Below are positions 1 through 20,272 of a DNA stretch of 64,000 nt, one piece after another. The notes under the pieces were generated by a model. It saw only the letters and a list, made by a program, of their open reading frames with translations. It ran no database searches and was not told where the DNA came from. The first letter of the stretch is position 1, and each line of letters opens with the position of its first letter. The stretch is taken from IMG/VR virus record IMGVR_UViG_3300042544_002482, positions 29,593 to 93,592 of that record; one strand, written 5' to 3'. A program made the position numbers and the translations under genes. Origin of the DNA: a virus.

Positions 1-781
1 CGTTCTCTAAGTACGTCCCATCTCTTCGTTCCTGTAATATTTGAAAGAACCATTTATTAGCTAAAAAACACTCTCCAGATGTGATTGAATTTTTATATTT
101 ATCACTCAATTCCATTAAGTTTAAATGTATCATTAATTGTTCAATGTAACAAGCTCCATATCCTTTATCATATGAGTCTATCTTTTCTTTATTTTCTTCG
201 TAGTGACTTAATGATAATTGTGTTGCCTTTTTGAATAATTCGAAATCTTTTACATATATTAAATTCATATTTGGGATGTCTCCAACTTTAAAGTTTTTAA
301 TTTTTTCTTCCGAATGAAATTTTTTCATATCATTAAACGGAACCCCATATGCATTCATTGCACTAGTAAAATAATCATTAAATCCTTTTGGTGTTGTGTT
401 ACGTCCTAAATCTGGAAAATCTCTATGTGCGAACATAACGTCTTGTTCTAATGGAAACGTTATTTTTTTATTAATAATAGTGTCGGTATCAATGTGAATA
501 AAAGGTTCATTCATCGATTCGAACACCTTCATTTTCACAACACTAAACGTAGTTGGGTTTAATCCATCTAACACATCTATATCTATTTCATCATATGGAA
601 TACCAATTTTAACAATTTGTTCCATAACAAACTCATTTGTGTATAATTTTATATTCCCTTGATTTCTTTTAATCATTAACGCGCTAAGTAATTGTACATA
701 TAAAACGTCTTTCCATATGACGTGTGTATATTTTTTATCGACATTAAAGTTATTTGGAATATAGCTATGTATAAATTTCAT
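1..781 (-). CDS. DUF6734-like (GT-A fold, DxD) putative glycosyltransferase, runs off the left edge
   Basis: Not in the ORF track. ATG at 781-779 overlaps the upstream stop. Manual translation MKFIHSYIP...IKLYTNE...IPYDEID...EPFIHIDTDT...IPNMNLIY...CYIEQL; open in the segments checked, including the window edge. Paralogous to 781..1722. Confidence 0.7.
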   Translation of the reverse strand, partial: MKFIHSYIPNNFNVDKKYTHVIWKDVLYVQLLSALMIKRNQGNIKLYTNEFVMEQIVKIGIPYDEIDIDVLDGLNPTTFSVVKMKVFESMNEPFIHIDTDTIINKKITFPLEQDVMFAHRDFPDLGRNTTPKGFNDYFTSAMNAYGVPFNDMKKFHSEEKIKNFKVGDIPNMNLIYVKDFELFKKATQLSLSHYEENKEKIDSYDKGYGACYIEQLMIHLNLMELSDKYKNSITSGECFLANKWFFQILQERRDGTYLEN

Positions 782-1722
782 TAAATTAACTTTTTATTTA
801 CTTTATTAATTTCATTTTTGTATTCCTCAATTTTCATATTTCTATATTCTTCATTTAATTTTAATGCGTGTTTATTAAACCACACGTGTTCGTAATTCAA
901 ATTTTCAGTGTGATCAACTCTGTTTGGGTCCTTTAACCAAAATAAAGCCTTTCCTGGTGCGGGATTATCACCAATAGAATGTGATTCTGAATATGACATA
1001 TAAATCTTATTCTCAATACTCTCCACTTTCATATTCAATTTTCTAATCCCGTAACCAAGTATCCCTTGATCAGCAATTAACCATAACCACTCAGGTATGT
1101 ATTCATATTCTCTAGTGATTATATCTAAATGTCTTTTTAGGTAATCATCTCTTAATGTCTCATTGTTCATGAAAACAAATGATGTATTTGGTATAAACAT
1201 ATTTTGATTGAAGTCTTCAATACCACCGATACGGTTTACTTGATTTTCAAAAACAAAAAATTCTCCCCTTTGAATTTCCCATTGGGTGTGTACTAAATCG
1301 TAATTCCAAACCCAATCAGGTAATTTACTCCTTACAATAAAATCTAAATCTAAAAATAGATATGGTGTGGGTTCTTTACCAATTACAATTGATTTACCCG
1401 TTGTCCAAAATCTACCTGGTTCAATGTATGAGTATTCTTTATTGAATGTCTCTAAAACATCCGTATCCACCTCATCCCATAACCCCAACATTCCTTTTTT
1501 CTTATAAAATTCATACCCAATATTATCAGTATACAATTTTGTTACCCCAACATACTTTTTCGCGTTTCTTACTGCTAATTCCTGTATAACTAATTCATAA
1601 TCAACAATATCATATTCATCGTCGGGTAAATCAAACATCTTCATTCTATTATACCCTTGAGCATCATTCTTGTGAAAAAATGGCGCGGTCCAATTAACAA
1701 AGATTACTTTTAAATTATTCAT
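781..1722 (-). CDS. DUF6734-like putative glycosyltransferase
   Basis: KLYTD, WDEVD, PYLFLDLDF (DxD), IPNTSF, IADQ, YEHVW motifs, same pattern as the adjacent paralog. Confidence 0.6.
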   Translation of the reverse strand: MNNLKVIFVNWTAPFFHKNDAQGYNRMKMFDLPDDEYDIVDYELVIQELAVRNAKKYVGVTKLYTDNIGYEFYKKKGMLGLWDEVDTDVLETFNKEYSYIEPGRFWTTGKSIVIGKEPTPYLFLDLDFIVRSKLPDWVWNYDLVHTQWEIQRGEFFVFENQVNRIGGIEDFNQNMFIPNTSFVFMNNETLRDDYLKRHLDIITREYEYIPEWLWLIADQGILGYGIRKLNMKVESIENKIYMSYSESHSIGDNPAPGKALFWLKDPNRVDHTENLNYEHVWFNKHALKLNEEYRNMKIEEYKNEINKVNKKLI

Positions 1723-2416
1723 ATATAAAATATAAGTCTTGTTTTAAATCATTGGTTTTATATAAAGGTACCCCCGAATTTAAAATCGATATACCTATTA
1801 TTAATCCCTCACCTCTACCTAATGGTTTGTTATTAAATTTAACATCATTATTGTTTATTTCTTTTTTTAAACAATTAAAAATTTTAAAAAAGTCATTCAA
1901 CTTTTCATCTCTACTAATAACGAAAAATCTTTCACCAATTAATTTAGCATCGCTAATTTTTAAATTGTTTTTTTTACAATGATTTTCAATATGATCAAAA
2001 TAATCATCTTTAATGATGTTCTTAAATTCTTGATATGTTAAAGGGGTTTCTAACCAATCTTCAGTATAATAAATCCCGGGGTTAAATTTTGCTTCACAGA
2101 AGTTATCAATATTTAATGTGATATCAGAATCAACATATAATATCGTCTCATATTTTTTTAAAGCAATTTCACAAATCAATAATTTATCCGTATAAGATTT
2201 GTCTACTTCAGTATACGGGACAATAATAACATTTAAGTCCTTAAACTCTTCTGGACTGTCAGTTAAAACAAGAATATCTACTGGGTAAGATTTATAGGTC
2301 TTAATATTTTTAATCGCCAAATCAATATAATAATTGTCTTCTTCTTTTTCTATTATACCGTTTTTAACTAATGGAGATTTAAATACAAATAAACAAATAG
2401 CTTTATTCATAATCAA
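1715..2416 (-). CDS. putative GT-A glycosyltransferase
   Basis: VLTDSPEEF, KL, YVDSD (DxD), GEG motifs; paralog of 19538..20272. Confidence 0.55.
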   Translation of the reverse strand: MIMNKAICLFVFKSPLVKNGIIEKEEDNYYIDLAIKNIKTYKSYPVDILVLTDSPEEFKDLNVIIVPYTEVDKSYTDKLLICEIALKKYETILYVDSDITLNIDNFCEAKFNPGIYYTEDWLETPLTYQEFKNIIKDDYFDHIENHCKKNNLKISDAKLIGERFFVISRDEKLNDFFKIFNCLKKEINNNDVKFNNKPLGRGEGLIIGISILNSGVPLYKTNDLKQDLYFIYE

Positions 2417-18816: not shown

Positions 18817-19559
18817 TTTTTCCTGTTAATAATGGTAATACCGCTTGATGACGGCTTGTCCACTAATATACGGAAATTATGTAAATTAATCAAGTTCCAG
18901 GTAGGATTTTCTTGTAATTCTTTAATTAATTTGGATGGTCCATCAAATCTATGAAAGTCCTTTCGTTGGTCCTCAGATACGATTAAAGTTCTTTCATATT
19001 CAGAATCGGTATCGTGTATAATGATTATACCATTTTCAGATAATATCTGTGAATATAAATCAAAATCTTGTTTTACGCCTTCATATGAGTGGTCTCCATC
19101 AATAAACAACAAATCTATTTTTATATCCTGTAAAACAAAGAAATTATAATATGCTTCTTCAGATGTGGATTTAATAAAACGAGGATAGAAATTTTTACGG
19201 TAGAATGAGTCTTCGTTTTCTAGGTCATTAGGACCCCCTACACCGTTACAAGCATCCACGACATATGTTGACCCTATGTCACCCCAATTAAGGTCAGAAT
19301 CACCCTCAAATATCCCTTGTTTATGGAGATCTAATCTAGCCTGTGTTAATATCCTCGGTATGAAACCTCCACCCGACCCAATACAAACACAAGTCTTAAA
19401 TCTCATATGTTGTATAATAGAATACACAACAAGACCGTCTCCCATATGTAAATCTGTTGCACCATGTGTCCACCTATATGGTACAGGTTGGTCATTATTG
19501 TTAGTAATGTTTTTTCTAATATATTCTTCATTTGTTATCATTTCATCCAATTTGGCCAT
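18813..19559 (-). CDS. class I SAM-dependent methyltransferase (Methyltransf_24-like, possibly sugar O-methyltransferase)
   Basis: IGSGGG, IDLLFIDGDHSYEG, GIIIIHDT. Confidence 0.85.
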   Translation of the reverse strand: MAKLDEMITNEEYIRKNITNNNDQPVPYRWTHGATDLHMGDGLVVYSIIQHMRFKTCVCIGSGGGFIPRILTQARLDLHKQGIFEGDSDLNWGDIGSTYVVDACNGVGGPNDLENEDSFYRKNFYPRFIKSTSEEAYYNFFVLQDIKIDLLFIDGDHSYEGVKQDFDLYSQILSENGIIIIHDTDSEYERTLIVSEDQRKDFHRFDGPSKLIKELQENPTWNLINLHNFRILVDKPSSSGITIINRKK

Positions 19560-20272
19560 AAATGTCGTGGTGTATATCTTCTACTTATACTTATCATTTT
19601 ACCTTCTAATATTTTATACAATTCAATGTCTCTTTGTACTTCCATATTTGCGGATTTACAACTTATTTGTATTGATATTCCTTCACCCGCACCGATTATT
19701 TCTTTTTTCAAAGGTAAGTCTGAAAATTCTTTTACTACTTGTAATTTTTCATAATAATAGTAAAATGAATCCATATCAAATCCGTCTTTATTGATTACCA
19801 AAAAATATTCCCACATTGTTTCAAAATTAAAAAATGGTGGATATAGTTTAGCCGCATACTCAACATATGTTTTCCATTCTGGATTGGTTTCGTTGATTAA
19901 ATCTTTTACAAATTCTTTTTTTGCACTATGATTCAATAAGGTATCGATATATGAAACTCCACCTTTGAAATTATATGTTTTTAATGATTCTAAAAATGAG
20001 TAGTCTGTGACGTGTGTGTCTGCATCAAGTAGGATACAAATGTTGTGATTTTTTAAGATGTATTTTGGTAATATCATCTTATCCGAATATGATTTTAAAT
20101 GTCTATTGTATTGAATAATATGTACTTGTGGGTATTCGGTAAATTCTTCGGGTTTATCTGTTAATACGTAAACAGATAATTCAACATCTAATAGTTGTTT
20201 AATTTTTTCTTTGGTTCCTCTATAATAATAGTCCTCACCAAAACAAAATATACCAAATCCTATGTTATTCAT
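19538..20272 (-). CDS. putative GT-A glycosyltransferase
   Basis: VLTDKPEEF, K, LLDADT (DxD), WE, GEG; paralog of 1715..2416. Confidence 0.55.
   Translation of the reverse strand: MNNIGFGIFCFGEDYYYRGTKEKIKQLLDVELSVYVLTDKPEEFTEYPQVHIIQYNRHLKSYSDKMILPKYILKNHNICILLDADTHVTDYSFLESLKTYNFKGGVSYIDTLLNHSAKKEFVKDLINETNPEWKTYVEYAAKLYPPFFNFETMWEYFLVINKDGFDMDSFYYYYEKLQVVKEFSDLPLKKEIIGAGEGISIQISCKSANMEVQRDIELYKILEGKMISISRRYTPRHLWPNWMK

Follow-up and report, generated by a model that had tools for sequence, protein, structure and literature searches.

What does a giant phage make with eight radical S-adenosylmethionine (SAM) enzymes encoded among glycosyltransferases (GTs) directly behind its tail genes, and on which molecule do these enzymes act? 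The question is raised by an operon in IMG/VR virus record IMGVR_UViG_3300042544_002482, which derives from an uncultured freshwater giant phage and of which we analysed the last 64 kb (positions 29,593 to 93,592 of 93,592 bp; hereafter the window). Glycan building and tailoring by this operon is well supported by its context. We tentatively favour a cytoplasmic pathway in which a glycan would be built and then edited by radical chemistry, with a phage structural protein as the likeliest acceptor. From the gene content, the virion is a plausible target. Coordinates refer to the window unless they are marked as contig (contig = window + 29,592).

The record represents 28% of a genome according to CheckV, which corresponds to a genome of roughly 330 kb. 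Cultured phages are remote from it, its SbcC-like protein being only ~23% identical to its best matches. When the 20-kb block was compared by megablast with 50,697 phage records, nothing was matched. As described in the initial annotation of this DNA, the window contains 21 successive, co-oriented and tightly packed genes, which run on the minus strand from 20272 down to 2 in the open reading frame listing, with every junction between -22 and +3 nt and 35 nt between the start of the operon and the small tail-tip gene at 20308-20892. The end of the block had been placed at base 1, which is the edge of the window and not the end of the operon. The window edge truncates a DUF6734 gene (383 aa when complete, contig 29222-30373), beyond which lie three further operon genes, encoding an adenosine 5'-phosphosulfate (APS) kinase, a 126-aa nucleotidyltransferase and a DUF2061 membrane protein; both this continuation and the sulfate-activation module in it had been missed. 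The arrangement fits a single transcription unit of ~24 genes and ~21.7 kb, from position 20272 to ~1.4 kb past the start of the window, because the promoter-like motif TATTTATA found ahead of the operon (Table 1) next recurs on this strand only at contig 28150, just past the DUF2061 gene and after the operon.

The eight radical SAM genes counted earlier from their CxxxCxxC motif were all recovered, the three cysteines (C128, C132 and C135) being invariant in 8/8 paralogs. Seven of them belong to the NCBIfam family NF033640 (N_Twi_rSAM), which they match over the full length of the model (positions ~1-398) with 268-381 bits against a curated cut-off of 170 bits, while the divergent gene at 4890-5912 falls outside the family with 58.6 bits. 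They share with this family an N-terminal Cys-rich domain, SPASM/twitch-like in Pfam (residues ~4-80), that precedes the Radical_SAM core, and C12, C31, C72 and C75 are invariant across 37 family members. Apart from one pair with 53% identity, which forms a duplicated radical SAM-LamG unit, the paralogs are only 16-34% identical to each other in the identity matrix, suggesting that they are old and differentiated. Two stand-alone LamG-like genes are interleaved with three of the radical SAM genes. The eight radical SAM genes and both LamG-like genes are intact and under purifying selection, with dN/dS values of 0.02-0.10 relative to L004, a related locus for which dS is mostly saturated. The family is catalogued and appears mostly viral: the nearest ESM Atlas clusters are 96-100% viral and the 14 control cellular genomes had no member above the NF033640 cut-off. 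Metagenomic homologs numbered 3,879. One contig from a metagenome-assembled genome was matched in a single-protein scan, and that genome encodes only ordinary radical SAM proteins with the core ahead of the SPASM domain, none of them above the cut-off. Our literature search found no paper on the N_Twi_rSAM family itself.

The substrate of these enzymes is the crux of the question, and gene context tells more about it than fold does. The AlphaFold2 model of the protein encoded at 5909-7219 has BlsE (Z 13.0; root-mean-square deviation (rmsd) 3.5 Å over 216 residues), SkfB (Z 12.3) and SuiB (Z 11.9) as its top PDB neighbours, followed by anSME (Z 11.8), MoaA (Z 11.6) and DesII (Z 11.1); in Foldseek and VIA searches with this model only the generic radical SAM core was matched, with no discrimination between substrates. 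As for context, three other independent phage lineages have N-terminal-twitch radical SAM genes that exceed the family cut-off and are located among sugar genes. Those of Vibrio phage K566 are interspersed with two GT8 genes and a weak GT4-like gene, Ralstonia phage RsoM2USA has one next to a NodU/TobZ-type carbamoyltransferase, and in the genome G003 four of them lie beside a B12-dependent radical SAM gene, an RmlC-like dTDP-sugar epimerase and a thiamine pyrophosphate-dependent E1 component. Since arrays of this kind stand among sugar genes in other lineages and sugar genes are also present on the same contig here, a carbohydrate is the best-supported candidate substrate for the N-terminal-twitch enzymes, which may carry out oxidation or epimerisation.

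A carbohydrate substrate need not be a polymer. The best fold neighbour, BlsE, and also DesII use small sugar or nucleoside substrates, the operon resembles natural-product tailoring sets in being rich in tailoring genes and having no scaffold synthase, and the carbamoyltransferase next to the radical SAM gene of RsoM2USA is of the TobZ/NodU type. The product could on these grounds be a soluble sugar-derived small molecule instead of a polymer-bound glycan, for example an aminoglycoside- or nucleoside-antibiotic-like, signalling or defence-blocking compound. We consider this quite improbable, given the many transferases with LamG lectin-type domains, the stable placement of the operon inside a fibre module and the failure to recognise any exporter beyond a single permease, which belongs to a different operon.

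Peptides are the substrates of most SPASM/twitch enzymes characterised so far, and the top fold neighbours include SkfB, SuiB, CteB and anSME. The radical SAM enzymes could thus modify fibre proteins directly, or a peptide resembling RiPPs (ribosomally made peptides that are modified after translation), by cross-linking, epimerisation or oxidation, with the LamG proteins as substrate-recognition partners and the glycosyltransferases serving a separate purpose. The ATP-grasp-Hint fusion encoded just after the operon (contig 26653-28131) would suit such a scheme, having a tail of 30-odd residues with six cysteines beyond the Hint HN motif. However, its homolog in the IMG/VR relative G001 (323,865 bp, 97% complete) ends at ...VHNK with no tail, so the six-Cys tail is not conserved. 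Further, Pfam and NCBIfam scans of the radical SAM genes revealed no RRE/PqqD-like domain, no precursor-like gene was recognised in the operon (its only small open reading frame, of 68 aa, has no Cys), sugar genes accompany the radical SAM arrays in four lineages, and eight paralogs at 16-34% identity far exceed what is found in known RiPP pathways. Direct protein modification is therefore improbable, if somewhat less so than a small-molecule product.

Table 1. Genes of the operon within the window, in order of transcription, and the motif preceding them.
Feature	Position	Strand	Evidence
Promoter-like motif TATTTATA, coding strand	20281..20288	-	9 nt before the operon's first ATG
Candidate GT-A-like glycosyltransferase, 244-aa DxD protein, first gene	19538..20272	-	paralog of 1715-2416
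SAM-dependent methyltransferase, Methyltransf_24	18813..19559	-	52.5 bits vs cut-off 26.3
GT2_4-like protein (weak)	17965..18816	-	Glyco_tranf_2_4 23.4 bits, under cut-off 27.5
Conserved 68-aa protein, no Cys	17762..17968	-	no family match
GT7 beta-1,4-galactosyltransferase-like enzyme with inserted LamG	16345..17769	-	7N 79.8, 7C 68.9, Laminin_G_3 30.2 bits
Second GT7-LamG enzyme	14951..16348	-	7C 71.6, 7N 64.5, Laminin_G_3 26.1 bits
N-terminal-twitch radical SAM	13761..14954	-	NF033640 291 bits; dN/dS 0.04 vs L004
N-terminal-twitch radical SAM	12378..13760	-	NF033640 330 bits; 53% identity to 10427-11809
Stand-alone LamG-like protein	11813..12394	-	Laminin_G_3 E 0.012, DUF6250 E 0.006; dN/dS 0.07
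N-terminal-twitch radical SAM	10427..11809	-	NF033640 340 bits
Stand-alone LamG-like paralog	9799..10440	-	E 2e-5 to 11813-12394; no family match of its own
N-terminal-twitch radical SAM	8459..9799	-	NF033640 268 bits
N-terminal-twitch radical SAM	7220..8455	-	NF033640 303 bits
N-terminal-twitch radical SAM, best family match	5909..7219	-	NF033640 381 bits; AlphaFold2 pLDDT 91
Divergent radical SAM	4890..5912	-	NF033640 58.6 bits vs 170; Radical_SAM 30.1 bits
N-terminal-twitch radical SAM	3695..4888	-	NF033640 295 bits
2-oxoglutarate (2OG)-Fe(II) oxygenase (borderline)	2985..3695	-	2OG-FeII_Oxy_5 27.1 bits vs cut-off 27
2OG-Fe(II) oxygenase-like (weak)	2403..2984	-	2OG-FeII_Oxy_3 19.3 bits vs cut-off 27
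DxD protein, paralog of first gene	1715..2416	-	paralogy E 9e-13
Distant DUF6734-like protein, LDLD motif	781..1722	-	E 1e-5 to DUF6734 gene; no Pfam match
DUF6734 protein, first 260 of 383 aa	1..781	-	54 bits

The sugar-adding part of the operon is smaller than first thought. Up to seven glycosyltransferases had been proposed, which was overstated: two predicted GT7 enzymes are solid and the other five are candidates. Both GT7 genes score above the cut-offs for Glyco_transf_7N and 7C, and the Methyltransf_24 assignment is likewise secured by its profile score. The protein encoded at 16345-17769 aligns with bovine and human beta4GalT1 sequences from PDB (E 3e-29), including the DVD and WGWGYEDDD motifs; its catalytic domain is not contiguous, being interrupted by Laminin_G_3 (~residues 187-340), and its C-terminal segment (425-471) aligns weakly to residues 234-279 of the beta4GalT1 chain. 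The two GT7-LamG paralogs are 29% identical over their full length (E 2e-42), and tblastn with a GT7-LamG protein gave no match. Among the candidates, the gene annotated as GT2/92-like stays below its cut-off. The two presumed GT-A proteins are indeed paralogs and share an invariant DxD motif (D83 and D85 in 29 homologs), but have no family match: Pfam recognised neither of them and gave single-member matches only when the 29 family members were scanned, and the family profile found nothing significant among PDB sequences. The Atlas neighbours of the first-gene DxD protein are all viral, with GT8 or Mannosyl_trans3 present in 12-20% of the members of distant-neighbour clusters. As to the pairs reported as DUF6734-like proteins, 2OG-Fe(II) oxygenases and LamG proteins, one DUF6734 assignment is solid and the second gene is only its distant paralog; one oxygenase is borderline and the other, in which an HWD...H...R pattern can be seen by eye, is below the cut-off; and the stand-alone LamG-like pair is weak, depending on a marginal Laminin_G_3 match and on paralogy.

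The organisation of the operon is maintained in relatives. In G001 and in a second IMG/VR relative, G002 (251 kb), a shared core is kept in the same order directly behind the fibre genes, so the link to tail genes, the loss of which in relatives would have spoken for another function, persists. This core comprises the first-gene DxD protein (56-90% identical in the two relatives), the methyltransferase (75-81%), the GT2_4-like protein (38-52%), the 68-aa protein (77-81%, more conserved than its neighbours), the two GT7-LamG enzymes, five or six radical SAM enzymes, the APS kinase, the nucleotidyltransferase, the DUF2061 protein and the ATP-grasp-Hint protein. The divergent radical SAM protein is 62-69% identical in relatives. 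Accessory to this core are the genes for the stand-alone LamG proteins and the oxygenases and the DUF6734 genes. In L004, 8/8 radical SAM genes are kept at 77-95% identity and the two oxygenase genes are 100% identical, a difference that reveals a mosaic pattern; the oxygenase gene at 2985-3695 was found only in the source phage and L004. The stretch is present in lake or freshwater metagenomes of at least 14 studies, and smaller versions are carried by cultured phages, namely Ralstonia phage RsoM2USA and Vibrio phages K566/K567.

The three operon genes beyond the window (contig 28159-29185), which form the operon end and are kept in all relatives, could point to sulfate as a further decoration. 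The APS kinase is short (144 aa) and scores 69.7 bits for Pfam APS_kinase against a cut-off of 21.1; its alignment with PDB APS kinases (E 1.6e-13) includes the P-loop, DGD and SP motifs. The adjoining 126-aa protein is a HIGH-motif nucleotidyltransferase whose best match, to nicotinamide mononucleotide (NMN) adenylyltransferase, is weak (E 0.003), and which may either activate sulfate, as a minimal enzyme of this kind, or act as a sugar-phosphate nucleotidyltransferase. Downstream, contig 24938-26254 encodes two small proteins with motifs like the 3'-phosphoadenosine 5'-phosphosulfate (PAPS) loop of sulfotransferases, PRSGST (identified by eye) and VPRCASTS. For the protein encoded at contig 25529-26254, neither a Pfam nor a PDB sequence match was found, and a family profile run against PDB sequences likewise gave nothing significant. 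Its AlphaFold2 model (pLDDT 87.5) retrieved sulfotransferases as nearly all top Foldseek and VIA matches, the best in VIA being heparan-sulfate 6-O-sulfotransferase (Z 7.3, rmsd 4.6 Å, 162 residues). One of its homologs carries PF03567, and a homolog is also present in G002 (L011:20995-21270). Sulfation by the APS kinase and the sulfotransferase-fold proteins thus seems possible from the modelled folds. No paper combining radical SAM, sulfotransferase and virion was found in our literature search. Elsewhere on the contig, a DUF401/CitMHS-type permease with 8 hydrophobic segments (contig 9250-11129) adjoins a 294-aa protein with a signal peptide, whose C-terminal ...FAWRF is of the kind usual in outer-membrane beta-barrels; the two may be a phage-encoded uptake pair for sulfate or another anion.

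When might the operon be expressed? The upstream motif that had been noted as common to the operon and the fibre genes, TATTTATA, does stand 4-66 nt ahead of the ATG of four fibre genes, and of several other genes. Of the 15 matches to its reverse complement TATAAATA in the window, 13 are on the plus strand, which places TATTTATA on the coding strand, and the TATTTATA copies across 20281-58632 lie mostly 4-66 nt ahead of start codons. In total, the TATAAATA matches do not exceed what chance predicts (15 vs 14 expected), yet their strand and position bias is striking, and TATTTATA is a candidate promoter of this phage group. Its identity with the T4 late promoter was considered and rejected, as the coding-strand motif is the reverse complement of TATAAATA, the T4 motif. 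A sigma-factor gene is present at 55967-56794. A search of sequencing runs for the stretch listed no RNA data set that contains it. The co-occurrence of TATTTATA with fibre genes, our sole indication of timing, suggests that the operon may be expressed late.

The operon forms the centre of a ~60-kb island of fibres and sugar enzymes. Ser/Thr-rich fibre paralogs (25-32% Ser+Thr) are encoded on both sides of it. In the middle of the island (contig 18950-24406 and 15542-18930) lie an 1818-aa fibre paralog, with 32% Ser+Thr, SSS-ATTT repeats and a GSYATTGSN module common to the fibres of the window, and three ~370-aa paralogs. The island also encodes a GNAT acetyltransferase and a second Methyltransf_24 protein. 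A convergent plus-strand block (contig 257-8725), whose start is cut by the contig end and which has no TATTTATA motif, contains two GT4-type and four or five GT2-type transferases, an NAD epimerase/dehydratase and a UDP-galactopyranose mutase (247 bits), the latter implying galactofuranose; together with the GT7 enzymes, this block bears out the sugar-related character ascribed to the region. A ninth radical SAM gene at contig 11943-13981 is of the conventional order, with a Cys-rich C-terminus and no N-terminal twitch, and lies beside a gene whose 346-aa product contains 9 Cys and matches no family. Apart from a permease and the DUF2061 protein, the island encodes no membrane proteins, and searches of the source phage, G001 and G002 yielded no Bac_transf, Wzx or WecA-type genes, although the control genomes were positive.

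These observations, together with the flanking fibre genes that carry the same upstream motif, speak for a pathway that runs in the cytoplasm without a carrier and has a phage acceptor. They have to be set against the published reading of similar islands, in which fibres, glycosyltransferases and radical SAM cassettes also occur together and for which modification of the host O-chain is preferred (Zaragoza-Solas et al. 2020, PMC7029224). By this account the lipopolysaccharide (LPS) core, O-chain or capsule of the host would be altered, for instance against superinfection or progeny re-adsorption, and the radical SAM enzymes, the methyltransferase and sulfation would tailor a host glycan. LPS and O-antigen loci typically contain GT2/GT4/GT8-type enzymes and Glf, and the island encodes the permease and the signal-peptide, beta-barrel-like protein described above. 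The missing Wzx and phosphoglycosyltransferase are compatible with host remodelling, because LPS-core transferases acting at the cytoplasmic face would borrow the flippase of the host. Nevertheless, we regard host envelope remodelling as unlikely, though as a serious contender: no phosphoglycosyltransferase, Wzx or WecA-type gene was found in the 97%-complete relative, the upstream motif of the operon recurs before the fibre genes, to which the operon stays linked in relatives, and LamG targeting domains and a eukaryote-type GT7 fold are atypical of LPS pathways.

In the pathway that we favour, the soluble enzymes of the operon would build and chemically edit a glycan in the cytoplasm of the infected cell (Table 1). 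Sugars would be added by the two beta4GalT-like GT7 enzymes and by the DxD, GT2-like and DUF6734 candidates, while the LamG domains, whether inserted in GT7 or stand-alone, would hold the growing glycan or its carrier. The seven N-terminal-twitch radical SAM enzymes and the divergent one would each perform a radical reaction of their own on a sugar unit, for example oxidation, epimerisation, deoxygenation or C-C/C-methyl chemistry. Further decorations could come from the methyltransferase and the 2OG-oxygenase-like proteins, and the APS kinase and the downstream sulfotransferase-fold proteins would permit sulfation. The likeliest acceptor would be the Ser/Thr-rich fibres whose genes flank the operon.

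Several observations weigh against this pathway. Ser/Thr-rich repeats are commonplace in phage fibres and carry no weight as proof. Five of the seven presumed glycosyltransferases have no significant family match. The peptide-modifying SkfB, SuiB, CteB and anSME are within ~1 Z of the sugar-modifying BlsE and DesII. TATTTATA also precedes genes of possibly non-structural role, and LPS-core transferases of the cytoplasmic face need no phage flippase. With respect to sulfation, no ATP sulfurylase was recognised, the 126-aa nucleotidyltransferase being the only such candidate beside the kinase, and the sulfotransferase-fold genes are preceded by a promoter motif separate from that of the operon and did not turn up in the 60 kb of G001 examined. 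A stronger version, in which a virus-dominated class of glycan-editing radical SAM enzymes, with the GT7-LamG transferases, methylation, hydroxylation and PAPS-dependent sulfation, gives the fibres or capsid a heavily edited, sulfated glycan coat, is a more doubtful proposition, if slightly less so than host remodelling. If true, it would mean a virion glycocalyx made by radical chemistry, which has no described counterpart in phages.

The last target to be considered is DNA. Phage glycosyltransferases classically glucosylate hydroxymethylcytosine in DNA, as noted in PMC7029224, and the glycosyltransferases and radical SAM enzymes could by extension decorate phage DNA bases against restriction. 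This is very improbable. The single ThyA-family gene of G001 matches true, canonical thymidylate synthases (273 bits), no TGT/DpdA is present in this near-complete genome, the operon contains no nucleotide-metabolism gene, and its linkage is to fibre genes, not to replication genes. The absence of known DNA-hypermodification genes, noted earlier for the window, therefore extends to a 97%-complete relative and weakens this reading. A DNA methyltransferase gene at 47265-48107 (phrog_56, E 8e-40) is the sole DNA-modification gene seen in the window.

Virus-encoded glycosylation of virions has precedents in the O-glycosylation of the capsid and tail tube of mycobacteriophages and in the glycan gene clusters of chloroviruses and mimivirus. 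In such systems, soluble glycosyltransferases encoded beside structural genes act in the cytoplasm with no lipid carrier, as they would in the pathway that we propose here. To our knowledge, none of them has radical SAM arrays, GT7-LamG fusions or a sulfate-activation module, and our literature search found no paper linking jumbo phage, radical SAM and glycosyltransferase. The nearest enzymatic parallels are BlsE and DesII from antibiotic pathways, which share the radical SAM core with the operon enzymes at a sequence identity of 11-15%, and the BtrN-type enzymes, which presumably act on small sugar or nucleoside substrates and to which we liken the radical SAM enzymes of the operon. In N_Twi_rSAM proteins the auxiliary-cluster domain stands before the core, whereas in the BlsE/DesII/BtrN type it stands after it.

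Large aquatic phages devote 20-60 kb beside their fibre genes to enzymes of this kind, and this investment, together with the presence of the stretch in at least 14 studies, suggests that the product matters for host recognition, phage-phage competition or survival of the particle. Working out the reactions of the radical SAM enzymes could reveal new radical chemistry on carbohydrates or proteins, and the cultured carriers of smaller versions make the question of the target testable at the bench. Radical SAM genes in number have been seen before in a large uncultured myophage: a T4-like marine environmental viral genome has 12 of them (Nishimura et al. 2017, PMC5332604), where they figure only as consumers of Fe-S clusters, and neither their family nor an operon or glycan context is given. 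The closest parallel is the host recognition cluster (HRC) of aquatic T4-like myophages (pelagimyophages and cyanomyophages), with its fibre genes, glycosyltransferases and swappable radical SAM cassettes (Zaragoza-Solas et al. 2020, PMC7029224). Both the HRC and the island described here are large, variable islands of the structural region, with several tail-fibre genes, glycosyltransferases, sugar-nucleotide genes and radical SAM cassettes, and with the same mosaic pattern. The likeness is one of gene content, whereas the HRC is defined by its position between the VrlC and gp14 neck genes of a T4-like core genome; moreover, the freshwater pelagimyophages of that study lack radical SAM and LPS genes, while the ~330-kb phage described here is from freshwater. 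The HRC study names no radical SAM family and no arrays, and makes no link to glycan tailoring. The operon is most likely virus-encoded glycan machinery in an HRC-type island, and identification of its target would settle whether it is the virion or the host that the glycosyltransferase-rich HRCs of aquatic myophages serve to decorate.

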